DNA of 64,000 nucleotides from Candidatus Omnitrophota bacterium (GTDB lineage Bacteria; Omnitrophota; Gorgyraeia; Gygaellales; Profunditerraquicolaceae): NCBI GenBank assembly GCA_028716245.1, contig JAQUQW010000001.1, positions 168,793 to 232,792 on the forward strand. Reading direction: 5' to 3'. Made by a program: the position numbers and the translations under genes. Under the pieces are notes generated by a model. The model worked only from the letters and a program-made list of their open reading frames with translations, was not told the DNA's origin and did not search any database. Shown here one piece after another: positions 2,671 through 64,000 of the stretch; positions within the stretch are counted from its first letter, which is position 1; each line of letters starts with the position of its first letter.

Positions 2671-2741
2671 AGGGGCGTCGGTTAATGGCAAACCAACGGT
2701 CTCCAAAACCGTGACTGCAGGTTCAAGTCCTGCCGCTCCTG
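2671..2741 (+). tRNA. tRNA-Trp (anticodon CCA)
   Basis: Acceptor AGGGGCG/CGCTCCT, D-stem GGTT/AACC, anticodon loop CTCCAAA, T-stem GCAGG/CCTGC, discriminator G. The position just upstream of secE is conserved. Confidence 0.85.
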
Positions 2742-13588: not shown

Positions 13589-13640
13589 TACCCCGCGCTT
13601 ATAAGGTATTGCGCGGGTGTGCCCTTGTGGGCAAAGGATA
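13589..13640 (+). repeat. GC-hairpin repeat element (full copy) upstream of rpsG
   Basis: taCCCCGCGC-ttataaggtatt-GCGCGGG-tgtGCCCttgtGGGC-aaagga, then ATG at 13645. Confidence 0.85.
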
Positions 13641-16306: not shown

Positions 16307-16357
16307 CACCCCGCGCTTATAAGGTATTGCGCGGGTGTGCCCTTAGGGGCAAGGAGG
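16307..16357 (+). repeat. GC-hairpin repeat element (full copy) upstream of tuf
   Basis: caCCCCGCGC-ttataaggtatt-GCGCGGG-tgtGCCCttagGGGC-AAGGAGG, then ATG at 16365. Confidence 0.85.
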
Positions 16358-16364
16358 ATAAGAA

Positions 16365-17567
16365 ATGGCTAAAGAAAAATTTGTAAGGAGTAAGCCGCAC
16401 GTCAATATCGGGACCATCGGGCACATCGATCACGGTAAAACTACCCTTACTGCTGCTATCTGCAATGTTCTTTCCAAGCTTGGAAAAGCTACTGCCAGAG
16501 ATTACGCGGATATTGCTAAAGGCGGAACAGTGCGCGATGACACAAAGGTTGTTACCATCTCTGTTGCTCACGTCGAATATGAAACAGACAGCCGCCATTA
16601 CGCCCATATCGACTGTCCGGGCCATGCGGATTATATCAAGAATATGATTACCGGTGCCGCCCAGATGGATGGGGCAATTTTGGTTGTTTCAGCAGCTGAC
16701 GGCCCGATGCCTCAGACCAGAGAACATATACTTTTGGCCCGCCAGGTAAATGTGCCGGCGATGGTCGTGTTTATGAATAAGGTTGATTTAGTGGATGACA
16801 AAGAGCTTTTGGATCTGGTTGAGATGGAAATAAGGGATCTTTTAACCAAATACGGATATCCGGGGGACAAAACGCCGATTATCCGCGGTAGCTCAAATAA
16901 AGCTTATGCGGCAACCGATCCTAATAGCCCAGAGGCCAAACCGATTTTGGATTTAATGAAAGCGGTTGATGAGTTTATTCCTCTTCCTCCCAGAGAGTTA
17001 GACAAGCCTTTACTGATGGCAGTCGAAGATGTTTTCAGTATTGAAGGTAGAGGGACTGTGGCAACCGGAAGAATCGAGCGCGGTAAGGTTAAAGTTGGCG
17101 AGGAAGTCGAGATTATCGGTTTAAGGCCGGAACCCAAGAAATCCGTAGTTACCGGAATCGAAATGTTCCGTAAGCTTTTGGATGAAGGCCAGGCTGGTGA
17201 TAATGTTGGTTTGCTTTTAAGAGGCGTAGAAAAGAATGATGTTGAGCGCGGAATGGTTATTGCGGCTCCCAAATCTATTCACCCGCACACGAAATTCAAG
17301 GCTCAGGTTTACATCCTGACCAAAGAAGAAGGCGGAAGGCACACTCCATTTTTTAAGGGGTACAGGCCGCAATTCTATTTCCGTACAACAGATGTAACCG
17401 GTACAGCCGGTCTTCCGGCTAACGTGGAAATGGTTATGCCCGGGGATAATGTGGCTTTGGATGTCGAGTTAATTACTCCGATTGCCATTGAGAAGGAATC
17501 ACGTTTTGCTATCCGTGAAGGCGGCCACACCGTAGGAGCAGGCGTAGTTACCGAGGTTATTGCATAA
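16365..17567 (+). CDS. tuf: elongation factor Tu (divergent switch I)
   Basis: [15 protein letters not shown]-loop, [12 protein letters not shown]. The canonical EEKARGITIN is replaced by DDTKVVTIS. Confidence 0.95.
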
Positions 17568-17570
17568 ACA

Positions 17571-17876
17571 ATGAATACGCAAAAGATTCGCATTAAATTA
17601 AAAGCCTATGATCACCGGCTTTTAGATCAGGCAGTTATCGAGATCGTGGATACCGTTAAGCGCACCGGGGCTAAGATTTCCGGCCCCGTGCCGCTTCCCA
17701 CAAAAAGGGAGATTTATACGGTGCTGCGTTCGGTGCACGTTGATAAAAAATCACGTGAACAGTTTGATTTATCTACCCATAAACGCCTTATTGACATCTT
17801 TGAACCTACAGCTAAGACCATCGATTCATTAAGGAAATTAAACCTGCCTGCAGGAGTGGACGTAGAGATCAAGTAG
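17571..17876 (+). CDS. rpsJ: 30S ribosomal protein S10
   Basis: [16 protein letters not shown] motif. Confidence 0.95.
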
Positions 17877-17899
17877 TAAATCAAAGACGGATAAATTAA

Positions 17900-18535
17900 A
17901 TGATTGGTTTGATTGGTAAAAAAATTGGAATGACTCAGGTGTTTGCCTCGGATAACAGCCAGGTTGGGGTTACGGCTATCCAGGCCGGGCCTTGCCCGAT
18001 CCTGAGGGTTATGGATAAGAATATCCAATTGGGTTTTGATTTGGCAAAAGAAAAAAGTGTAAAGAAGCCGCAATTGGGGCTTTATAAAAAATTAAATATT
18101 GCTCCGCGTAAGGTGATTAAAGATATTTCAAAAGAAGCTAATGTTGAATATAAAGTGGGGGATGAGCTTAAAGTTGATCTTTTTGCCGAAGGCGATTTTG
18201 TGGATGTCCGCGGGACTTCCATTGGAAAAAGTTTCCAGGGTGGTATGAAGCGTTGGCATTGGAAGGGTGGTCCGAGAACCCACGGTTCAACTTCGCACCG
18301 CCGGGTTGGCTCCATTGGTTCCAGCACTACTCCCGGCCGTGTCTTTAGGGGGCATCATATGCCCGGGCACATGGGCGCCAAAAACGCAACGGTACAAAAC
18401 TTAAAAGTGATCAAAGTAGATTTAGAAAATAATCTTTTGTTGGTTGAGGGAGGGGTTCCCGGATTTAAAAATGGGTATCTAGTAGTTACCAAATCTTTTA
18501 AAAAGAAAGCAAAGAAAGCGGCAGTGAAAAAATAA
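17900..18535 (+). CDS. rplC: 50S ribosomal protein L3
   Basis: S10 operon order and sequence. Confidence 0.95.
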
Positions 18536-18536
18536 T

Positions 18537-19181
18537 ATGTTTACCTTACCCGTATATAATAGCCAAGGCGCGGAAGTTGAGACGATAAAACTCGATGCCG
18601 CAATTTTTGACGCAAGCCTGAATACCAATAGCTTGCATCAGGCTATTGAAGGTTACCGGGCTAACCAGAGAAAAGGATTGGCTTCAACTAAGACCCGCGG
18701 CGAAGTTTCCGGAGGCGGTAAGAAACCCTGGAAGCAAAAGGGGACAGGGCGTGCCCGCGTAGGTTCCACGCGTTCTCCTCTTTGGAGGCATGGCGGGGTA
18801 GTTTTTGGCCCGCATCCGCGCGATTTTTCTTATGATGTCCCGCAAAAAATCAAGGCCGCGGCTTTAAAAACAAGTTTAAATCTTAAGCTCAAAGAAAATA
18901 ATTTTGTGGTCTTGGATGATTTTAAAATCGATGCGCCCAAGACTAAGGAGGCGGTAAAGGTATTTACTAATTTAAAATTATTTTCCGCAAAAGATAAAAA
19001 AATAAAAAAGGTTTTATTCTTAACGCATAAACTGGATGGCCAATTAAAAGTGTCCTTAAAGAATATTGGTTTCTTAACGGTAAATTTGGCTTCTGACTGC
19101 CATGCTTACGAAGTAATGAATAATCAAAAGCTGCTGATCACTAAAGCCGGATTAACGGATTTGACTAAGAGGTTAAAGTAA
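18537..19181 (+). CDS. rplD: 50S ribosomal protein L4
   Basis: S10 operon order and sequence. Confidence 0.93.
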   Translation: MFTLPVYNSQGAEVETIKLDAAIFDASLNTNSLHQAIEGYRANQRKGLASTKTRGEVSGGGKKPWKQKGTGRARVGSTRSPLWRHGGVVFGPHPRDFSYDVPQKIKAAALKTSLNLKLKENNFVVLDDFKIDAPKTKEAVKVFTNLKLFSAKDKKIKKVLFLTHKLDGQLKVSLKNIGFLTVNLASDCHAYEVMNNQKLLITKAGLTDLTKRLK

Positions 19182-19459
19182 TGACCGCAATTACCGCGAT
19201 AATTAAAGCACTTTTACAGACTGAAAAATCAAGCACCTATTTGCCTAAAGGCAAGTATCTTTTTTTGGTAGATAATTCTGCGAATAAGATCCAGATTAAA
19301 AGAGCCGTGGAGCAGGCTTATAAAGTTAAGGTTAAGGACGTCAATACCTTTGTTTCTATGGGTAAACTTAAAAGGGTAAGGCATCAATTGGGACGCACAT
19401 CCGACACGAAAAAAGCCGTAGTTACTTTAGTGGCCGGGCAAAAAATAGAGGTAGCATAA
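19181..19459 (+). CDS. rplW: 50S ribosomal protein L23
   Basis: S10 operon order and sequence. Confidence 0.9.
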
Positions 19460-24037: not shown

Positions 24038-24087
24038 CACCCCGCGCTTATAATGAATTGCGCGGGTGTGCCCGTGTGGGCTAGGAG
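24038..24087 (+). repeat. GC-hairpin repeat element (full copy) upstream of rpsH
   Basis: caCCCCGCGC-ttataatgaatt-GCGCGGG-tgtGCCCgtgtGGGC-tAGGAG, then ATG at 24093. Confidence 0.85.
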
Positions 24088-45958: not shown

Positions 45959-45964
45959 GGTTAC

Positions 45965-46190
45965 AAGGTTAACGTTACTGGTCCAGGGAAGGCCGTGTGA
46001 ATCGGTCGCAGTTCCCGCTGCTGTAAAAGAGGTCGAAATTCTCTTGAATATTTGCCACTGGTTTAACCAAAGCCGGGAAGGCAGGAGAAGAGTAGGATAA
46101 ACTCTTAAGTCAGAAGACCTGACCAGGAACAGATGTCCAACAATTACTTTTAAACCCGCGGACAGGTTTAAAAGGGTTAGAAAACAGGGA
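45965..46190 (+). promoter_or_regulatory. cobalamin (B12) riboswitch aptamer
   Basis: AGGGAAGGCCGTGTGAATCGGTCGCAGTTCCCGCTGCTGTAA core and downstream GCCACTGG B12-box-like segment; upstream of a TonB-dependent receptor. Confidence 0.75.
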
Positions 46191-54346: not shown

Positions 54347-54787
54347 ATGAATATAACTTATAAAGGTGATTACGCGTTAAAAGCGCTTTTGGATTTAGCG
54401 GTGCATTATGACTTAGGATTATCAACGATACACGATATTGCCAAGCGTATCAATGCCCCGGTTAAGTTTCTTGAACAGGTCCTTCTGGATTTAAAAAAGG
54501 GCGGTTTTGTGGAAAGCCGGCGCGGTAATGTCGGTGGTTATTTGCTCTCCCGGCCTCCGGCTAAAATAGTGTTGGGAGATGTGGTTAGATTTATTGACGG
54601 CCCGACAGAGCCGATTGCCTGTGTTGGAAGTGATTATTCAGGTTGTACCGATATATATAGGTGTAGTTTTCGCAGGATCTGGCAGGATGTAGCCAAAGCT
54701 ACTTCGGGGATAATCGATAATATAACCTTTGAAGACTTGGTAAATAAGCTAGAAGTGAACAAAGAAGCGCTGGTTTATCAGATTTAA
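54347..54787 (+). CDS. Rrf2-family transcriptional regulator (IscR/CymR-like; 3 Cys, possible Fe-S ligands)
   Basis: N-terminal wHTH (YALKALLDLA...STIHDIAKRINAP) and CVGSDYSGCTDIYRC cysteine cluster. Confidence 0.8.
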   Translation: MNITYKGDYALKALLDLAVHYDLGLSTIHDIAKRINAPVKFLEQVLLDLKKGGFVESRRGNVGGYLLSRPPAKIVLGDVVRFIDGPTEPIACVGSDYSGCTDIYRCSFRRIWQDVAKATSGIIDNITFEDLVNKLEVNKEALVYQI

Positions 54788-54794
54788 ATAAGCG

Positions 54795-54983
54795 TTGATG
54801 AAAATGGAAAATATAAAAATAGGCAGTGATACGGTTATTAAAAACATTAAAGAGGCGGTTTTGGGCCTTGATTATGGTGACGTCCTGATCAAAGTGCATA
54901 ATTCCAGGATTGTGCAGATTGAGGTGACTCAAAGGAAGCGTTTTGACGATGCCCATAAAATTGAAGGAGGTGGCGGAATATAG
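54795..54983 (+). CDS. DUF2292 (YezD-like) small protein
   Basis: 62 aa; the GDVLIKVHNSRIVQIE motif resembles YezD. This family is commonly co-located with sulfur assimilation genes. Confidence 0.6.
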   Translation: MMKMENIKIGSDTVIKNIKEAVLGLDYGDVLIKVHNSRIVQIEVTQRKRFDDAHKIEGGGGI

Positions 54984-55041: not shown

Positions 55042-55092
55042 CACCCCGCGCTTATAAGGAATTGCGCGGGTGTGCCCTTGTGGGCAAGGAGG
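55042..55092 (+). repeat. GC-hairpin repeat element (full copy) upstream of cysH
   Basis: caCCCCGCGC-ttataaggaatt-GCGCGGG-tgtGCCCttgtGGGC-AAGGAGG, then ATG at 55099. Confidence 0.85.
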
Positions 55093-55925: not shown

Positions 55926-57206
55926 ATGAGAGTTCTTCTAGTTGTAGGTTGGTTGTTAGCAGCGCAGCTGGCTTCAGCAACCTTAGCATTTGCTGTTGAA
56001 ACCGATGTTGATAAGTTGCTTGAATTTCTGATTAAGGAAAAAGTCCTGACTCAAGAAAAGGCAACGGAATTCAGGGCGGATTTAGCGATAAAGAAGCAGG
56101 AAGAAAAACAACCCGCAGCGGTTCCTGATTGGGTCCAGAACATTAAACTTAAAGGGGATGTCAGGACAAGATATGAATGGGATAAGAATAAAAACCAGCA
56201 GGATAATTCAAGAGCAAGGATTAGAGTTAGGATAGGAGTAGAAGCTAAGGTTAACAATAAACTAAAGGCGGGTATTGGTATTTCAACCGGAAACACTAAT
56301 GATCCGCGTTCCAGGGATATTACGCTGGGTAATTCTTCTACGGCTAACACGCCAGGCTCGCCCAAAGGTATTATCCTGGATTATGCATATGGGCAATATA
56401 CGCCATTCAACTGGTTAACCTTAACTGCCGGTAAGTTCCAGAACGTTTTGTGGCAGCCCTTTGATGCGTTATGGGATAATGATATTACTCCGGAAGGATT
56501 CGGTGTTAACTTAAGCCATAAGTTTAACTCAAAGCTGGATTTCTTCTTGAATAATTTATTTTACATTTTAAAGAATGATTCCAGGCTCGATAAACAGGCT
56601 TTTCTGGAAGCTTTACAATCCGGGATAAATTGGGCTGTAAATGGTAAAGTCAAACTGAAGAGCGCTCTTACTTACTATCTTTTTCAAGGCGTAAAGGGCG
56701 CGCAGAAGTTTAGCGATAGTAAAAGCGGCACAGCTCCTTACGCATCAAGCGGCAATACCTTGGTTGGCGGAACATATAGGTATAATTATAACTCCATTCA
56801 ACCGACCGTTGAACTCTCATTTAAAGATCCATTCCAAGGATTTTTGCCTTACGCGGCTATTTTCGGAGACTACATTTATAATGTCTCTAGCGTAGGAAAC
56901 GGAGCAGGTGGTTTTGATCTGGGTTTGAAATTCGGAGCGGAAAAAGTCAGTGACTGGAAACAATGGCAGGGCAAACTGGTATATTCAAAATTAGGCAGAG
57001 ATAGCCGGCTGGATATATTAACCGATAATAATCGGTATGGTGGAAACACCAATTCCCAGGCTATTGAGGGTATTTTGGAGTTTGGATTAGGTAAGAATAC
57101 GACTCTAGTACTGGATTATTATTCTTCACAGAGTCTCACTAAGGCCAGCTCAACCGGTTATGCTCCAGAGCAGCTTTTTCAGGCTGACTGGAATTTGAAA
57201 TTTTAA
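55926..57206 (+). CDS. outer-membrane beta-barrel porin, possibly phosphate-selective (OprO/P-like)
   Basis: Signal peptide; alternating amphipathic pattern; C-terminal WNLKF; immediately upstream of pstSCAB. Confidence 0.55.
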   Translation: MRVLLVVGWLLAAQLASATLAFAVETDVDKLLEFLIKEKVLTQEKATEFRADLAIKKQEEKQPAAVPDWVQNIKLKGDVRTRYEWDKNKNQQDNSRARIRVRIGVEAKVNNKLKAGIGISTGNTNDPRSRDITLGNSSTANTPGSPKGIILDYAYGQYTPFNWLTLTAGKFQNVLWQPFDALWDNDITPEGFGVNLSHKFNSKLDFFLNNLFYILKNDSRLDKQAFLEALQSGINWAVNGKVKLKSALTYYLFQGVKGAQKFSDSKSGTAPYASSGNTLVGGTYRYNYNSIQPTVELSFKDPFQGFLPYAAIFGDYIYNVSSVGNGAGGFDLGLKFGAEKVSDWKQWQGKLVYSKLGRDSRLDILTDNNRYGGNTNSQAIEGILEFGLGKNTTLVLDYYSSQSLTKASSTGYAPEQLFQADWNLKF

Positions 57207-57216
57207 GGGAGGAAAA

Positions 57217-58155
57217 ATGAAAAAATTAATTATTATCGCGTTAGCATTAAGTCTTTTGAAGATTTCAAGTAATAATGTTTTTGCTCAAGGAAGTGAACTC
57301 CAGGGTACCCTGACACTGTCAGGCGCCTGGGCAATTTATCCTACGGCAGTGGCTTGGGCAGAGGGTTTTCAGAAGAAATACCCTAAAGTAAAAATCGATG
57401 TTTCAGCCGGAGGCGCAGGGAAAGGCGCTACTGATGCCATTACCGGTTTAGTTGATATCGGAATGGTTTCACGCGAGCCGGATCCCGCAGAGATTAAAAA
57501 AGGAATAACGCCGGTTTATATTCTTCATGACGCGGTTTTTGCTGTAATTAATGAAAAAAATCCCGCACTTGAGAGTATCCTTAAAAAGGGGGTTAATAAA
57601 GAAAACTTTATTGATTCCTGGGTTAATGGATCAATCGCTACCTGGGATAAGGTAGCAGCTAGCAAAGTGAATAAACCGATTCATCTTTTTACGCGCTCTG
57701 ATTCCTGCGGAGCTGCCCAAAGTTGGGCGGGATACTTGGGTAAAAAGCAGGAGGATTTAAAAGGGATCGGAGTTTATGGCGATCCGGGGATTTTGGAAGC
57801 GGTAAAAAAAGATCCAATCGGCATAGGCTACAATAATTTCAGTTATGTATTCTCCCGTGATGGCGCATTAGCTAACGGTATAAGATTAGTTCCGATAGAT
57901 TCAAATGAGAATGGTAAAGCCGATGCCGATGAAATATATACAAACCGTGATGAGGCAGTAAAGGCGATAAGAGCGGGTAGGTATCCGGCGACACGAAGGA
58001 ATTATTTTTTTGTAAAAGGCAAACCTGCCGGTTTAGTCAGGGAATTTATTCTATTTGCTCTTTCTGAAGAAGGGGTTAAAATAGTAGATGAAGTTGGGGC
58101 AAGCCTCTCTTTAGCTACGCAGGAGCGGGAAAAGGTCTTAAAAAGCTTAGAGTAA
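57217..58155 (+). CDS. pstS: phosphate ABC transporter substrate-binding protein
   Basis: Signal peptide; PBP-like PstS family motifs (SGAWAIYP, SAGGAGKG). Confidence 0.8.
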   Translation: MKKLIIIALALSLLKISSNNVFAQGSELQGTLTLSGAWAIYPTAVAWAEGFQKKYPKVKIDVSAGGAGKGATDAITGLVDIGMVSREPDPAEIKKGITPVYILHDAVFAVINEKNPALESILKKGVNKENFIDSWVNGSIATWDKVAASKVNKPIHLFTRSDSCGAAQSWAGYLGKKQEDLKGIGVYGDPGILEAVKKDPIGIGYNNFSYVFSRDGALANGIRLVPIDSNENGKADADEIYTNRDEAVKAIRAGRYPATRRNYFFVKGKPAGLVREFILFALSEEGVKIVDEVGASLSLATQEREKVLKSLE

Positions 58156-58167
58156 AAGGGATAGGGG

Positions 58168-59094
58168 ATGTATCAAAAAAGGACAATTAAAGATATAACC
58201 GCCAAGCACATTATGTTTACCCTGACTCTTCTGGTAAGCTTGCTGGTTGTAGTTATTGCTTGGGGATTATTTACAAGATCCCGGCCTATTCTTAGTGAAA
58301 ATAGCCTTACGGCGCTTTTGTTTTCAGTAAAATGGCACCCCACCCAGGGACAATTTGGGTTCGCGCCATTTATTCTGGGAACAATTTATGTGACGCTGGT
58401 GGCCATTGTTTTAGCCGTCCCATTAGCCATATTTAGCGCTGTATTTCTCGCGGAGTATGCGCCGAAGGCCTTAAGAAATAGTTTTAAACCTGTGCTTGAC
58501 CTATTGGCGGGGATTTCTCCGGTAATCTTCGGGGCCTTCGGCGTTTTAGTAATCGTTCCTCTTGTGCAAAAATATTTATTACCTGTCGTTGCGCATCTGG
58601 CAAAGTTTGTTCCGTTTTTAGCGACTAACAATTTTACCGGTTTTGGCGTATTTTCCGCCGGAATTATCCTGGCGATGATGATATTCCCGATTATGACCCA
58701 AGTTGCCGAGGAAGTAATCCACAGCATCCCTAAAGAAGTCAGGGATTCTTCGCTGGCTCTTGGGGCAACGCATTGGGAAACAATTAAATATGTGGTTTTA
58801 AAAAAGTCCCGGCCGGGTATCATTGCCGCGGTTATTCTTGGTTTAGCCAGGGCCTTTGGAGAGACAATAGCAGTGCTGATGGTGGTCGGTAATGTGGTGC
58901 AGATCCCCAAATCTTTATTTGATGCCGCCTATACGCTGCCGGCCCTGATTGCCAATAATTACGGCGAAATGATGTCTATCCCGTTATATGATTCCGCGTT
59001 ATTATTGGCCGCTTTAATTTTACTGGTAGTTACTGTATTTTTTAATATATTAGCCTGGTTAATTCTTGCCAGAGTTGAAAAAGCATATGTCTAA
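58168..59094 (+). CDS. pstC: phosphate ABC transporter permease PstC
   Basis: 6 TM with EAA-like loop; operon context. Confidence 0.85.
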   Translation: MYQKRTIKDITAKHIMFTLTLLVSLLVVVIAWGLFTRSRPILSENSLTALLFSVKWHPTQGQFGFAPFILGTIYVTLVAIVLAVPLAIFSAVFLAEYAPKALRNSFKPVLDLLAGISPVIFGAFGVLVIVPLVQKYLLPVVAHLAKFVPFLATNNFTGFGVFSAGIILAMMIFPIMTQVAEEVIHSIPKEVRDSSLALGATHWETIKYVVLKKSRPGIIAAVILGLARAFGETIAVLMVVGNVVQIPKSLFDAAYTLPALIANNYGEMMSIPLYDSALLLAALILLVVTVFFNILAWLILARVEKAYV

Positions 59095-59947
59095 TATCCA
59101 AAATAGAATCTTAGAAGAAAAAATTTTTAAAACTATTATGTTGGTTTCGTTTATTTTTGTAATTTTTATTTTTTTAAGCATGATCGCGGTTATTGTTATC
59201 AAGGGGCTGCCGGGGCTAAACTGGAAAATGCTAACTCAGACTCCTAAAAGCGGTTATTACATTGGCGGGGAGGGTGGTATTCTTAATGCGATCCTAGGTT
59301 CACTTTACCTTGCTGTAGGAGCTACTTTACTGGCAGCGTTGATCAGTGTTCCGGTTGTTCTCTTTATTAATGTGTACCTTAAAAAAGATTCCTGGTTTGC
59401 CATGTTGGTCAGATTTTCCTTTGATGTATTATGGGGAATTCCTTCAATTGTCTACGGCGCGTTTGGTTTCGCGGTAATGATATTTTTTCATGTGCGCGCT
59501 TCATTATTGGGGGCAATTATAACTGTCGCTATCTTAGAATTCCCGATAATCTCGCGCGTAGCCGACGGAATCCTTAAATTGGTTCCTGTGGAATTAAAAG
59601 AGGTATCTTTAAGTTTGGGCGCGACACGCTTTGAAACCTCTTTTAAAGTTATTTTAAAACAAGCCGCTCCCGGAATCCTTACGGCGCTACTAATCGGTTT
59701 TGGCAGGGGCGTCAGCGATGCCGCATCGGTTTTATTTACCGCAGGATATACCGATTCTCTTCCGACTTCATTATTAAGGCCGGTGGCAACCCTGCCCTTA
59801 GCCATATTTTTTCAGCTGGGGACGCCTTTTGCCGAAGTGCAACAGAGAGGATATACGGCTGCTTTGATCCTTATTTTAATTATTTTTGCGATCAGCGGAT
59901 TAAGCCGGATTTTAAGTAAACGGTTCCACGAACATATATTGAGGTAA
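59066..59947 (+). CDS. pstA: phosphate ABC transporter permease PstA
   Basis: 6 TM permease. The start could instead be ATG 59087. Confidence 0.85.
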   Translation: MPELKKHMSNIQNRILEEKIFKTIMLVSFIFVIFIFLSMIAVIVIKGLPGLNWKMLTQTPKSGYYIGGEGGILNAILGSLYLAVGATLLAALISVPVVLFINVYLKKDSWFAMLVRFSFDVLWGIPSIVYGAFGFAVMIFFHVRASLLGAIITVAILEFPIISRVADGILKLVPVELKEVSLSLGATRFETSFKVILKQAAPGILTALLIGFGRGVSDAASVLFTAGYTDSLPTSLLRPVATLPLAIFFQLGTPFAEVQQRGYTAALILILIIFAISGLSRILSKRFHEHILR

Positions 59948-59949
59948 AC

Positions 59950-60771
59950 ATGAATAAGGGAAATATTCGTACCGATTCTTTGAATGTTTTTTACGCCAGC
60001 CACCAGGCGCTAAATGAAGTTACTCTGGATATCCCGACCAGGAAGATAACGGCAATTATCGGGCCTTCCGGCTGCGGTAAATCCACCCTGTTAAAAAGCT
60101 TTAACCGCCTCATTGAGTTAAGCGATGAAGTCAGGATATCGGGAAAAGTTTTTTTCGATGGTGAAAATATTTATGATAAGTCGGTAGATGTTTATTCGTT
60201 ACGTAAAAAAATGGGGTTATTGGCTCAGCGGCCATATCCGCTGCCTATGTCTATCTATGAGAATGTGGCCTACGGGCTTAAGATCCATAATTCCATTGAT
60301 AAGAATAAGCTAGGGGCGATAGTGGAGCATTATTTAAAGGTGGCTAATCTCTGGGATGAAGTCAAGACGCGCCTGCACGCTTCGGCAACAAAGCTTTCTA
60401 TTGGCCAGCAACAGCGTTTATGCCTTGCCCGCGGCCTGGCGATCGAGCCGGAAATAATTCTCTGCGATGAACCAACCTCAGCGCTGGATCCTTTTTCTTC
60501 GGAGCGCATCGAAAAAAAACTTATCGAACTTAAAGAAAAATACACGATTGTTATCGTAACGCACAATATTCAGCAGGCAATGAAGCTTGCCGATTATGTT
60601 GTTTTTCTTTATAACGGAGTTGTTGTTGAGGCAGAGGCAGCCGATAAGATTTTTAAAAAGCCCCGGGAGCTCCTTACCCAGGCATATCTTAAGGGAGAAT
60701 TTTTAGATGAGATCTGGGTGCAGAAAGAAGCGCATTCCAGCAGAAAAATTGGAGAAGGTGAAGGGATATAG
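59950..60771 (+). CDS. pstB: phosphate ABC transporter ATP-binding protein PstB
   Basis: GPSGCGKST Walker A, PstB-specific LLAQRPYPLPMSIYENVAYG, LSIGQQQR signature. Confidence 0.9.
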   Translation: MNKGNIRTDSLNVFYASHQALNEVTLDIPTRKITAIIGPSGCGKSTLLKSFNRLIELSDEVRISGKVFFDGENIYDKSVDVYSLRKKMGLLAQRPYPLPMSIYENVAYGLKIHNSIDKNKLGAIVEHYLKVANLWDEVKTRLHASATKLSIGQQQRLCLARGLAIEPEIILCDEPTSALDPFSSERIEKKLIELKEKYTIVIVTHNIQQAMKLADYVVFLYNGVVVEAEAADKIFKKPRELLTQAYLKGEFLDEIWVQKEAHSSRKIGEGEGI

Positions 60772-60773
60772 GG

Positions 60774-61745
60774 GTGGGCGTGAATTTTTATCTTATCGGG
60801 ACAGATTATCAAAGTGTTGATTTAATCGGGCGCGAGGAGATCAACGCAAGGCGCCGCCAGATTGGCGCCTATTGGGCGGAGTTTTTTTCTCAAACGGCGG
60901 TGCTGTCTACATGCAATCGTTTTGAGCTTTATGGAATTGCCGCTGAATCAGTAAAATTTCCCCGGATTGAAGAAGGCTGGTATTTTATGGAGGGCAGGGT
61001 AAATGTTTTTGCCCACGCTTTGAGGGTAGCGGTTGGCCTTGAGTCGCAGCTAAAAGGGGAATTACAAATTTTAGAGCAGATAAATTCCTGGTCTAATAAA
61101 ATTCCCGCCGGTTTAACCGGCCTTTGGAGTAGGGTTTACTCCGATGCCCTTCTTATACGCAGGGAATCCGGGCTCAATGGCCAGGATAATATTGCTACTC
61201 TTGTATTTGATGATATGAAAAAAAATTTAGTTTGGCCGAATGAATTAAAAATTGTGGTAATCGGGACAGGTAAGATCGCCGGGCTTTTGGCAAGACACCG
61301 GCCTATTAATGCGCGTTTGATTTTTGCGGCTCATAAAAATAAATTGGCTGCCCAGAGTCTGGCGGAATCAGCTTGCGGTAAGACAGTTTTTTTAAGCAAC
61401 CTGCCGGATGTTTTAGCTGAAGCGGATTTTTTAGTGAGTGCCACCGCAAGCCCCCATCTTATTCTTAAGGCAGAAGAATTAGAAAGGATAGCTTTACGGC
61501 GGAAGAAGCCGTTGTATATCTATGATTTAGCCATGCCTAGGGATATCGAGCCGGTGGCAGGCCAAATAAGGGGTGTAATTTTAAAGAACCTCGATGATCT
61601 ATTCTTTGTTTTTAAAGAGCATAATGATAGAATAAAAAACAATTTGTCTTTGGCAGAATACTTTGTTGAGGAAAAGGTTAAAGAATATGAAAGAAACTCT
61701 AAGGCTGGGTGCCCGGTCAAGCCCGCTTTCCTTAAAACAGGCTGA
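60774..61745 (+). CDS. hemA: glutamyl-tRNA reductase, short form lacking most of the C-terminal dimerization domain
   Basis: LSTCNRFELY catalytic Cys, HALRVAVGLESQLKGELQIL, IVVIGTGK NADPH fold, LYIYDLAMPRDIE. 323 aa versus ~420 typical. Confidence 0.75.
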   Translation: MGVNFYLIGTDYQSVDLIGREEINARRRQIGAYWAEFFSQTAVLSTCNRFELYGIAAESVKFPRIEEGWYFMEGRVNVFAHALRVAVGLESQLKGELQILEQINSWSNKIPAGLTGLWSRVYSDALLIRRESGLNGQDNIATLVFDDMKKNLVWPNELKIVVIGTGKIAGLLARHRPINARLIFAAHKNKLAAQSLAESACGKTVFLSNLPDVLAEADFLVSATASPHLILKAEELERIALRRKKPLYIYDLAMPRDIEPVAGQIRGVILKNLDDLFFVFKEHNDRIKNNLSLAEYFVEEKVKEYERNSKAGCPVKPAFLKTG

Positions 61746-62361
61746 TGAAATAAAAGGTATTTTTCCTTCTATTGATTTTGAGGTTATTACTTATCAAACG
61801 CAAGGGGATAGGGATAAACATACGCCTTTTGCGCGGTTTGAAGGCAGTGATTTTTTTACCCGTCAACTTGAAGAGGCGTTATTGAAGAGGGAGATAGATG
61901 TTGCGGTGCATAGCGCTAAAGATCTGGAAGAAAATCCGCCCCGTGGATTGACAATTGCCGCAATCACCGCTTCAATAAGCCCTTATGAATGCTTGGTTTC
62001 CCGCGGGAACAAACTTTTGGGAGGGCTTAAGCCTGGCAGCCGGATTGCTACCAGCAGTTCCAAACGCAAAAACGCGCTTTTACGCTATCGCCGCGACCTT
62101 GAAATTTACGATGTGCGCGGGAATATTGAAGAACGCCTGTATCAATTGGATAAGGGGAAGTTTGACGCCCTTATTGTGGCGCATGCCGCTCTAATCAGGC
62201 TTGGGCTTGAAAATAGGATCACAGAAATTATCCCTAAGTGGGTTATTCCTGCGCATCCTTTGCAAGGATCTTTGGCCCTGCAGGTACGCAGCGATAATCA
62301 GCGCTTGATAGATTTATTCAGTGTAGTAGATACATATAAGGAGAAAAACAATGAAGATTAA
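61687..62361 (+). CDS. hemC: hydroxymethylbilane synthase homolog lacking domain 3 (cofactor-binding Cys region)
   Basis: LRLGARSSPLSLKQA, VAVHSAKDL and IRLGLENRI align to HemC domains 1-2, but the protein ends after ~232 aa. Start 61687 (MKETLRLG) is preferred over 61663. Confidence 0.65.
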   Translation: MKETLRLGARSSPLSLKQADEIKGIFPSIDFEVITYQTQGDRDKHTPFARFEGSDFFTRQLEEALLKREIDVAVHSAKDLEENPPRGLTIAAITASISPYECLVSRGNKLLGGLKPGSRIATSSSKRKNALLRYRRDLEIYDVRGNIEERLYQLDKGKFDALIVAHAALIRLGLENRITEIIPKWVIPAHPLQGSLALQVRSDNQRLIDLFSVVDTYKEKNNED

Positions 62362-63790
62362 GGTAAACGGCAAAGAACAATTGATTGATGATCGGGATTC
62401 ATCGATTACCGGATTGCTAAAGATAGCTAATGTGGAAAATCCCCAGATGGTTTCTGTCCAGCTTAACGGGGAATTTGTTGACCGGTCAAAATTTGATAAG
62501 CTACGCTTAAACGAGGGTGACCAGCTGGATTTTCTCTATTTTATGGGCGGAGGAAGCGGATTAAGGTTTATCACTAAAATTTTGCATACTAAATTTTCAA
62601 AAGAAGATCCGCATGGGTCTTTGCATATGCCGGTATATGACAATGTGGCCTTTGAGTTCAAGACCGCTGAGGATTTGGAGCTTGCATTCCAGGGTAAGAA
62701 ACCTTCGCATATGTACAGCCGCATAAGTAATCCCACGGTGGAACATTTTGAGCAAAAAATAAAGGCCATCACCGATGCCGCCGGAGTAATCGCGCTTTCT
62801 TCCGGAATGGCAGCTATCTCAAATACCATTTTAACCATTGCCAGGTCTAAAGATAATATTATCACTTCTAAACACCTTTTCGGTAATACCTATTCTTTAT
62901 TTGAAAATACGCTTAAAGATTGGGGTTTGGAAACCCGCTATGCTGATTTGATCAGGCCGGAAAAAGTAAACCAGCTTATTGATGGGAAAACCAAAGCGAT
63001 ATTTCTTGAGACAATCACTAATCCTCAACTTGAGGTTGTAGATATAAAGGCCATCTCTGAAATAGCCAGAAGAAAAAATATCCTGCTTATTGCCGATACT
63101 ACCATGACCCCGCCGTATATTTTTTCAGCCAAGGAATTCGGGGTAGATATCGAAGTCATTTCAAGCACTAAGTGGATTTCCGGAGGCGCAACCAGTGTCG
63201 GAGGCATAATTATCGACCACGGGCTCTATGACTGGAAGAAGAATGATAAATTGCATAGTGACGCGGTCAAATTCGGCCCCTTTGCTTTTATCGGCCGGCT
63301 CAGGCATGAGGTATACAGGAATATAGGAGCATGTATTTCCGCGCATAACGCTTATCTTCAAGGTTTAGGGCTAGAAACATTGCCGCTTAGGCTTGATATT
63401 GCCTGTGCCAATACGCTTAAGATCGCGGAGTTTTTAAAACAGTCAGCCCGGGTGAAATCCGTGAATTACCCGGGGCTTAAAGATTCTGCTTACTATGAAA
63501 CTGCCCGTAAACAATTCGGGGATAAGCCGGGGGCGGTTTTAACTTTTGACCTGGTGTCAAAAAAAGAGTGTTTTTGTTTCCTGAATAATTTAAAACTTAT
63601 CCGCAGGGCTACGAATTTGCATGATAACCGCTCCTTGATTTTGCATCCGGGATCAACGATTTTTTGCGAATATGACGCTGCGCTTAAAAATGAGATGGGG
63701 GTAAGGGATACTTTAATCAGGCTTGCCGTAGGTATTGAGGATTACCGGGATTTAATTTCCGATATACAACAGGCCCTGGAGGGCTTATGA
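62351..63790 (+). CDS. fusion of a ThiS/MoaD-like sulfur-carrier domain (ending GGG) to O-acetylhomoserine sulfhydrylase (MetY)
   Basis: The N-terminal 70 aa resemble ThiS and end in FMGGGSG. The remainder is a PLP-dependent Cys/Met-metabolism enzyme with [18 protein letters not shown] lysine. Confidence 0.75.
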
Positions 63791-64000
63791 TAAATTTTAG
63801 CGAACAACAGATAGAGCGTTATAGCCGCCATATCATTCTTGGCGATGTCGGGGTTGAGGGGCAGGAGAAGATTTCAAACGGAAAGGTGCTGATTATTGGG
63901 ACCGGGGGCCTTGGCGCGCCGGCTGCTTTATATTTAGCAGCCGCAGGGGTCGGCACGATTGGTTTGGTTGATGGGGATAATGTTGAGTTATCAAACCTGC
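63787..64000 (+). CDS. ThiF/MoeB/HesA-family E1-like adenylyltransferase (3' partial)
   Basis: [18 protein letters not shown]...[22 protein letters not shown] Rossmann motif; ATGA overlap with the preceding gene. Confidence 0.8.

Follow-up and report, generated by a model that had tools for sequence, protein, structure and literature searches.

The window analyzed here, a 64,000-nucleotide stretch of contig JAQUQW010000001.1 from a Candidatus Omnitrophota bacterium (assembly GCA_028716245.1), ends in a gene in which a ThiS-like sulfur-carrier domain is joined in frame to an O-acetylhomoserine sulfhydrylase (MetY), followed by the beginning of a gene for a ThiF/MoeB-type activating enzyme (E1). 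The fusion gene occupies positions 62351-63790 of the forward strand, begins with an ATG codon preceded at 8 nt by an AAGGAG Shine-Dalgarno sequence, and encodes a protein of 479 residues with a mass of 53.6 kDa. The features at this end of the window are as follows.

62351-62554, forward strand: HcyS/ThiS-like beta-grasp sulfur-carrier domain, residues 1-68 (TIGR01683, PF02597, AlphaFold2 with Foldseek, profile match to 2K5P/3CWI)
62555-62569, forward strand: junction or linker S69-G-L-R-F73, between GGG and the MetY N-terminus ITKILH, with the predicted JAMM cleavage site at its 5' edge
62555-63790, forward strand: MetY domain, residues 69-479, 411 residues, about 45.9 kDa (PF01053, match to 3RI6)
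63787-64000, forward strand: ThiF/MoeB-type E1 (HcyF-like), N-terminal 71 residues, cut by the window end (ATGA overlap with the MetY stop; PF00899)

Carrier, sulfhydrylase and neighboring genes

The N-terminal domain, which ends DFLYFMGGG68, had been described in an initial annotation of the window as a ThiS-type beta-grasp of about 70 residues with a terminal glycine motif, and both profile and structural comparisons bear this out. Residues 3-68 cover the full TIGR01683 (NCBIfam, ThiS) profile (positions 1-64) with 54.8 bits, above the curated cut-off of 37.45 bits, and the domain scores 30-35 bits with PF02597 (Pfam; curated cut-off 22.5 bits). An AlphaFold2 model of residues 1-68, built with 34 homologues, has a predicted local distance difference test score (pLDDT) of 86 and the strand and helix order of a beta-grasp fold, and Foldseek aligns it with template modeling (TM) scores of 0.86 to 3CWI and 0.83 to Escherichia coli ThiS in the ThiS-ThiF complex (1ZUD). 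By profile match, the closest relative of solved structure is the Geobacter metallireducens protein entered as ‘ThiS’ (2K5P/3CWI, 80.7 bits), which also ends FLYFMGGG. Although TIGR01683 is an equivalog for the ThiS of thiamin synthesis and its sequence cut-off is passed, the thiG/thiH context of thiazole formation is absent, the neighbors being MetY, sulfite reductase and cysH, and relatives encode separate thiS-thiG-thiH clusters (17507-19339 of the related locus L002 and 1-2583 of L006). For both reasons, the name ‘sulfur carrier protein ThiS’ is misleading for the 479-residue protein. Orthologues of this length (P0002, P0007) are entered under that name at NCBI and as ‘O-acetylhomoserine (thiol)-lyase’ at JGI, neither of which covers both domains; nor do they reflect the non-thiamin role. 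As a consequence of such misannotation, pathway tools could overlook the carrier or assign thiamin synthesis wrongly in Omnitrophota.

The remainder of the protein is a complete MetY joined in frame, as the initial annotation had stated, with PF01053 (Cys_Met_Meta_PP) matching residues 75-477 over profile positions 2-381 (E 5e-105). This superfamily model alone passes its threshold: the best NCBIfam family, TIGR01326 (O-acetylhomoserine/O-acetylserine sulfhydrylase), scores 369.4 bits, below its curated cut-off of 495.1 bits, and the MetY, MetZ and MGL equivalogs all fall below their own cut-offs. The motif SSTK274, whose lysine (nt 63170-63172) binds pyridoxal 5'-phosphate (PLP), is present and is invariant across the family. 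The closest solved sequence is 3RI6 (436.6 bits versus 290.9 bits for the runner-up), which also heads the Foldseek results, where TMt values of 0.79-0.90 to MetY structures (fold type I) are obtained. This entry is reportedly the Wolinella succinogenes MetY structure of Tran and colleagues from 2011. The 3RI6 entry bears the same title as a paper on W. succinogenes MetY that PMC8191291 cites, and the W. succinogenes enzyme is stated to use a carrier-protein thiocarboxylate rather than bisulfide (PMC8191291; secondary statements also in PMC6225789 and PMC5764234). The window MetY shares a median identity of 58% with carrier-adjacent MetYs across phyla, as opposed to about 35% with the second MetY paralogue of its Omnitrophota relatives. 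By this measure the carrier-adjacent MetYs, that of the window included, form a sequence subfamily of their own, and the domain is predicted to be a PLP-dependent O-acetylhomoserine sulfhydrylase of the carrier-thiocarboxylate-dependent subfamily. A second, more canonical MetY is encoded together with CysK, MetX (Abhydrolase_1) and MetW just downstream of the cluster in L002 (13089-17116) and L006 (10859-13242), and relatives of this type seem, from their gene content, to carry both carrier-dependent and sulfide-dependent routes to homocysteine.

The gene that follows overlaps the fusion gene by ATGA and is of the ThiF/MoeB type, in agreement with the first description: its 71 visible residues match positions 1-60 of PF00899 (ThiF; E 4e-22) as well as MoeB/ThiF NCBIfam models. 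An exact match to the window protein gave no contig, and close homologues were used in its place; the sequence that continues beyond the window end is represented by the syntenic locus L001 (contig JAQURC010000002.1, assembly GCA_028715785.1), which is 85-92% identical to the window in nucleotide sequence and encodes a fusion protein 93% identical to the one described here. In L001 the ThiF orthologue has 268 residues, consists of the ThiF domain only, without a rhodanese domain, and contains two CxxC motifs; it is followed by a 135-residue Prok-JAB protein with an intact JAMM motif (HSH-x7-S-x2-D) and then by a 787-residue sulfite reductase with a C-terminal TusA domain. A JAMM protease had been expected past the window end, and a search for this enzyme or for a rhodanese domain had been suggested; the protease gene is indeed found after ThiF in L001 and in all other fused loci that could be read (L002/L003, L007 and L088), and the JAB proteins of the fused loci retain the HSH-x7-S-x2-D motif. 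The order ThiS(-)MetY, ThiF, Prok-JAB and sulfite reductase-TusA is common to these fused loci and to the unfused loci L004/5, L006 and L089, with the sulfite reductase-TusA gene lying downstream in L001, L002 and L006, and with cobA/hemD, hemB and hemL after the sulfite reductase in L001 and L007. Thus an E1 gene and a JAMM gene adjoin every fused gene examined, and a second HcyS-type carrier was not found in any fused locus examined.

Fusions of this type recur widely among related sequences. A search of 5.8 billion protein clusters, with matches counted as 90%-identity clusters, returned 42 other fused clusters of 475-493 residues, 62-97% identical and each containing PF02597 and PF01053, from four independent data sources (JGI, ENA, NCBI and Logan). 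Some of these lie on contigs of 69-287 kb, and the named ones belong to Candidatus Omnitrophica/Omnitrophota, to which the whole set, drawn from independent metagenomes, apparently belongs. A second search, of residues 1-120 against 1.84 billion representatives and aimed at fusions in other phyla, returned mostly free carriers and fragments, the fused proteins evidently being clustered under unfused representatives. Two fragments, P0122 and P0130, derive from more distant fused forms and a follow-up search added one more, P0271; this is too little to establish a second fused lineage, P0122 and P0271 being known from contigs of <1 kb alone. A further candidate, P0125 (1915 residues, with 11 matching stretches), was considered as a poly-ThiS protein and is in fact a cadherin-like repeat protein with a compositional match. 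In the fused-like metagenome fragment P0123 (255 residues) the Gly-Gly is replaced (FLFFMGEEN...) and about 40 unrelated residues precede the MetY N-terminus; it may represent a decayed carrier, an intergenic read-through or a miscall, and it was left out of the comparisons.

The breadth of the system as a whole was assessed by scanning a single genome of each species for the carrier pattern [DE]FLYFMGG, from which 80 of at least 591 loci were kept. These come from more than 12 phyla, among them Bacteroidota, Planctomycetota, Desulfobacterota, SAR324, Ignavibacteriota, Omnitrophota and Spirochaetota, together with Fibrobacterota, Calditrichota, Acidobacteriota, Verrucomicrobiota, Clostridia and others. 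Most of the loci have the order carrier, MetY, ThiF and JAB, followed by sulfite reductase and/or TusA. A fusion to MetY occurs in none of the 80 species-representative loci, a count that reflects the breadth of the system and not the true frequency of fusion. Other fusions are seen in clusters of the same type: a ThiS-DsrE2 protein in L025 (6001-6675; Bacteroidota), in which the HcyS-type ThiS ends GGG, and a Prok-JAB domain joined to a small ferredoxin-containing sulfite reductase in L024 (8638-10035) and L072 (8262-9536; Omnitrophota-like).

Proposed release of the carrier by a JAMM protease

F61 and Y63-F-M-G-G-G68 do not vary among the 43 fused proteins, while the segment from GGG to the MetY N-terminus TKILH ranges from 3 to 20 residues and is variable in sequence, the first residue after GGG being S, G, Q, D, N, E or F. 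In the window protein this segment has low AlphaFold2 confidence. The combination of an invariant GGG with freely varying neighbors fits a protease site that is set by the carrier side alone rather than a passive linker. JAMM enzymes that cut SAMP and MoaD fusions have been described as having sites defined in this way by the carrier side (PMC8832034). A cut at G68|S69 would yield a carrier of about 7.7 kDa and a MetY of 411 residues, a length that agrees with the 411-413 residues of unfused MetYs. The A-G-G ending of the L004 carrier, the ThiS profile, which ends at residue 68, and the C-terminus of 3CWI favor G68 rather than G67 as the new C-terminus. An internal start at M65 was considered as a source of free MetY and rejected: it is preceded by no Shine-Dalgarno sequence and would leave the carrier unreleased.

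The unfused relatives supply a second line of evidence, since their carriers, too, are encoded with tails. Nearly all separate carriers among the 80 loci run 1-15 residues past GGG, L017 and L075 being the ones that stop right after it. In unfused Omnitrophota the tail of the carrier gene overlaps the metY start in a different frame: the L004 carrier ends MAGG-IEELPVSEWRK and its stop codon overlaps the ATG of metY, that of L006 ends MGGG-SLNGSV with the metY start 14 nt before the stop, and that of L089 ends GGG-I with an ATATGA overlap. The linker of the fused proteins aligns with this region of overlap, and in the junction DNA alignment fused and unfused genes differ by indels of a length not divisible by three, which delete the stop and start and join the two frames. 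In a neighbor-joining tree of 120 MetY-domain sequences, fused forms are scattered among unfused ones at many depths, with neighboring pairs of differing state (P0021 fused and P0033 unfused; likewise P0028 fused with P0031 and P0027 fused with P0036), which indicates that the state has changed many times. On these sequence comparisons, the evolutionary pattern suggests a near-neutral and readily reversible change of packaging with no new mechanism. The fusion is accordingly less exceptional than the initial annotation had implied, the unfused carriers also being tailed precursors and the two states having been interchanged repeatedly.

Taken together, we consider it likely that the fusion protein is a polyprotein precursor, cut by a JAMM protease, that feeds thiocarboxylate-dependent homocysteine synthesis of the W. 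succinogenes type. The proposed chemistry is taken from the W. succinogenes pathway (HcyS/HcyF/HcyD/MetY/Sir), which is said to have been characterized by Krishnamoorthy and Begley in 2011. The HcyD-like JAMM enzyme predicted to be encoded two genes downstream, just past the window end, would cut the 53.6-kDa product after Gly68. This cut would free a 68-residue carrier that ends Gly-Gly-Gly-COOH, and the N-terminus of the 411-residue MetY so released would be close to native. The ThiF-type E1 would then adenylate the C-terminal glycine of the carrier, and sulfur from the sulfite reductase of the cluster, probably passed on by its fused TusA domain, would convert the acyl-adenylate into a thiocarboxylate. 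The carrier thiocarboxylate would serve MetY as the nucleophile that attacks the O-acetylhomoserine intermediate bound to PLP, and the resulting carrier-homocysteine adduct would be hydrolyzed, again by the JAMM enzyme. The fusion itself would have arisen when the overlap of carrier stop and metY start was removed by a junction indel not divisible by three, and would be tolerated since every carrier is produced with a C-terminal tail and the protease takes off whichever tail is present. We infer cleavage, its site, the transfer of sulfur from sulfite reductase-TusA and the part played by the thiocarboxylate as sulfur donor to MetY from homology and gene context.

Adenylation and thiocarboxylate formation require a free C-terminal carboxylate, as in ThiS, MoaD and CysO, and the uncleaved fusion therefore cannot act as a carrier. 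Of the two modes of sulfur delivery that had been put forward at the outset, proteolytic release is thus supported, whereas delivery in cis without cleavage is chemically untenable. JAMM cleavage of linear fusions has been documented for MoaD-MoaE and SAMP proteins (PMC8832034).

Several points weigh against the proposed processing. Cleavage is predicted here from sequence and gene context, and the cut may fall after G67 or after G68, the comparisons above favoring the latter. For the enzyme, W. succinogenes HcyD reportedly removes a single C-terminal alanine and hydrolyzes the carrier-homocysteine amide, and endoproteolysis of a folded partner of 411 residues would be an extrapolation from these activities. 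The JAMM gene lies outside the window, its presence in this genome being predicted from the syntenic, approximately 90%-identical L001. The full-length AlphaFold2 model is of moderate quality (pLDDT 71, with residues 62-126 below 50) and does not inform on the accessibility of the junction; owing to this uncertainty, neither the placement of the carrier on MetY nor the ability of the uncut protein to form a tetramer can be read from the model.

The fusion might also serve a purpose of its own, as a zymogen-like device in which MetY is inactive or non-tetrameric until the JAMM protease removes the carrier, and in which carrier and enzyme are made at 1:1 stoichiometry and stay close together, a single cut both freeing the carrier and activating MetY; this would refine the precursor interpretation, and we regard it as rather unlikely. 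The fused state is kept over whole clades at 75-97% identity, and the N-terminal segment of MetY contributes residues to the active site of the neighboring subunit (Arg60' in TmMetY; PMC8191291), with the carrier lying just 5 residues upstream of that segment; moreover, MoaD-MoaE fusions are inactive before they are cut (PMC8832034). Set against this are the interleaving of the two states on the MetY tree, where close relatives differ in a manner that resembles near-neutral toggling more than an innovation kept by selection, and the absence of the fusion from the 80 representative loci outside the fused group. In addition, the overlapping genes of the unfused relatives already provide near-equimolar synthesis through translational coupling. 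A zymogen-like role is possible but unsupported. Somewhat more doubtful still is its extension to a JAMM-gated zymogen in which the carrier, once cut, stays docked on its own MetY, carrier maturation and activation of the enzyme being a single regulated event, and passes private, channeled sulfur from sulfite reductase-TusA on to homocysteine with no free sulfide.

It is considerably less probable that the fusion is never cleaved, with the beta-grasp domain acting as a permanent docking or regulatory module and MetY using free sulfide or another carrier. A non-carrier role is hinted at by ThiF proteins with a ubiquitin-like domain fused at the N-terminus that co-occur with a separate ThiS (Iyer et al., 2006; PMC1779556), and the separate thiS next to thiG/thiH in L002 could in principle share the E1. 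However, such a module gives no reason for an invariant GGG beside freely varying residues, and the fused domain is orthologous to the free carriers of the unfused relatives rather than a family apart, and shares their DFLYFMGGG end. Furthermore, the fused loci yielded no second HcyS-type carrier and keep E1 and JAMM genes beside each fused gene, and the MetY belongs to the carrier-dependent subfamily. Finally, the fusion might be an assembly, sequencing or gene-calling artefact joining two genes, a sequencing error having been named as an objection. The two states differ only by a junction indel not divisible by three, a change that such an error could mimic, and P0122 and P0271 come from short contigs. 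An artefact is nevertheless scarcely credible given the recurrence of the fusion in 42 further clusters with linkers of varied length and sequence, from independent sources and in part from long contigs, the agreement of the window with L001 at the junction in the DNA alignment, and a reading frame that is open and conserved on both sides of it.

With the carrier released from a precursor as proposed, the fusion provides a natural substrate for examining how ubiquitin-like domains are recognized, and linear fusions cut, by a bacterial JAMM/HcyD-type protease. That the fused and split states have replaced each other repeatedly amounts to a natural experiment that shows the tolerance of the protease for any C-terminal extension, and this tolerance explains why the carriers are almost always encoded with tails. 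The locus also indicates a carrier-protein route for the assimilation of sulfate into methionine in these Omnitrophota.

Upstream genes and other features of the window

Upstream of the fusion gene lie genes of sulfate assimilation and of tetrapyrrole synthesis, all identified with Pfam.

54347-54787, forward strand: Rrf2 regulator
54795-54983, forward strand: DUF2292 protein
55072, more likely 55099, to 55803, forward strand: 3'-phosphoadenosine 5'-phosphosulfate (PAPS)/adenosine 5'-phosphosulfate (APS) reductase, cysH
60774-61745, forward strand: hemA, glutamyl-tRNA reductase
61663-62361, forward strand: hemC, porphobilinogen deaminase, overlapping the fusion gene

The link to the nearby cysH and Rrf2 genes that had been drawn from the window is supported by conserved synteny, with Rrf2, DUF2292 and cysH also found upstream of ThiS/MetY in L001, L002, L004, L006 and L007. 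L001 has the same upstream set as the window, namely Rrf2, DUF2292, cysH, porin, ATP-binding cassette (ABC) transporter, hemA and hemC. The products of hemA and hemC probably supply the siroheme precursor for the sulfite reductase. The longest cysH open reading frame begins at a GTG (55072) within a repeated hairpin element, which is followed by AAGGAGG and, at about 55099, by an ATG that is more likely to be the true start, as its product matches the 234-residue L001 orthologue.

Within the sulfate-assimilation operon, positions 55926-60771 encode a Porin_5 porin and a Pst-like ABC transporter (PBP_like_2, two permeases and an ATPase). A permease of the PHO4/PiT family occupies the transporter position in L002, L006, L007 and L089, and the PiT family includes a sulfate permease, CysP of Bacillus subtilis. 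The phosphate-type transporter found here may import sulfate or another sulfur oxyanion.

The hairpin element upstream of cysH is conserved, is about 45 nt in length and consists of two hairpins, ACACCCCGCGC-UUAUAAGGUAUU-GCGCGGGUGU and then GCCC-UUGU-GGGC. It occurs four times in the window, where no copy is expected by chance, and is listed here together with the sole Rfam matches of the window at gathering score.

13593-13632, 16311-16350, 24042-24081 and 55046-55085, forward strand: copies of the two-hairpin element
45962-46141, forward strand: cobalamin riboswitch (Rfam, 83.7 bits)
2432-2504 and 2671-2741, forward strand: two tRNA genes (Rfam)

Each copy is followed, after 2-6 nt, by an AGGAG Shine-Dalgarno sequence and the start codon (ATG) of rpsG, tuf, rpsH or cysH. 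The same element, at 4457-4499 of L001, precedes the gene for the ABC-transporter binding protein there. Folding gives z-scores of -2.6 to -3.5, and the element matches no Rfam family at gathering score. It may be an intercistronic leader, a stabilizer or a processing element.

Comparison with known systems

The gene neighborhood was catalogued in Wolinella, Geobacter and others by Iyer, Burroughs and Aravind (2006; Table 1, row 4e; PMC1779556), as a set comprising a ThiS/MoaD-like protein, JAB, a rhodanese-less E1, SirA/TusA, PAPS reductase, sulfite reductase and O-acetylhomoserine sulfhydrylase. The same work describes carrier-partner fusions in sulfur operons with JAB and E1 (ThiS-ThiG, MoaD-MoaE and the actinobacterial sulfite reductase-ThiS), and the ThiS-MetY architecture is not among the fusions listed there (PMC1779556). 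The carrier of the sulfite reductase-ThiS fusions is located at the C-terminus, with its Gly-Gly end free or nearly so (PMC1779556), whereas the Omnitrophota carrier is N-terminal and internal. No description of a ThiS-MetY fusion was found in literature searches, and it is, as far as the literature searched shows, an apparently undescribed architecture of a known methionine pathway. Its value is incremental, the pathway itself being already known.

The Mycobacterium tuberculosis CysO/CysM/MoeZ/Mec+ system for cysteine and the Streptomyces MetO/MetM/MoeZ/Mec system for homocysteine resemble the present one in that a carrier thiocarboxylate donates sulfide to a PLP enzyme and a JAMM hydrolase both frees the amino acid and matures the carrier. 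They differ in their PLP enzymes, which are CysM or the threonine-synthase-like MetM (acting on O-phosphohomoserine), in a rhodanese-bearing E1 and in an unfused carrier.

The HcyS/HcyF/HcyD/MetY/Sir system of W. succinogenes shares with the Omnitrophota cluster a ThiS-like carrier, a carrier-dependent MetY, a rhodanese-less E1, a sulfite reductase and sulfate-assimilation genes, together with a JAMM protease that is seen in the orthologous loci, as well as a carrier that is made with a masked Gly-Gly end and needs a protease. In contrast, the W. succinogenes carrier is a separate small protein, reportedly with a single extra alanine, while the tail of the Omnitrophota carrier is the whole 411-residue MetY; the Omnitrophota cluster further differs in the C-terminal TusA domain of its sulfite reductase and in an operon that includes siroheme-precursor genes.

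Closely comparable in domain arrangement are the MoaD-MoaE fusions (DR2607 of Deinococcus radiodurans, with DRJAMM, and MoaX of M. tuberculosis), in which an N-terminal carrier is likewise joined through Gly-Gly to the enzyme that uses its thiocarboxylate, and for which JAMM cleavage is required for activity (PMC8832034). These belong to the molybdopterin pathway and have a partner of another fold, and their cleavage is experimental while that of ThiS-MetY is deduced. Of this arrangement, the N-terminal carrier and the Gly-Gly junction are present in the window, and the cognate JAMM gene is known from the orthologous loci only. Processing of the ThiS-MetY precursor would offer a simple prokaryotic analogue of the processing of polyubiquitin and ubiquitin fusions.

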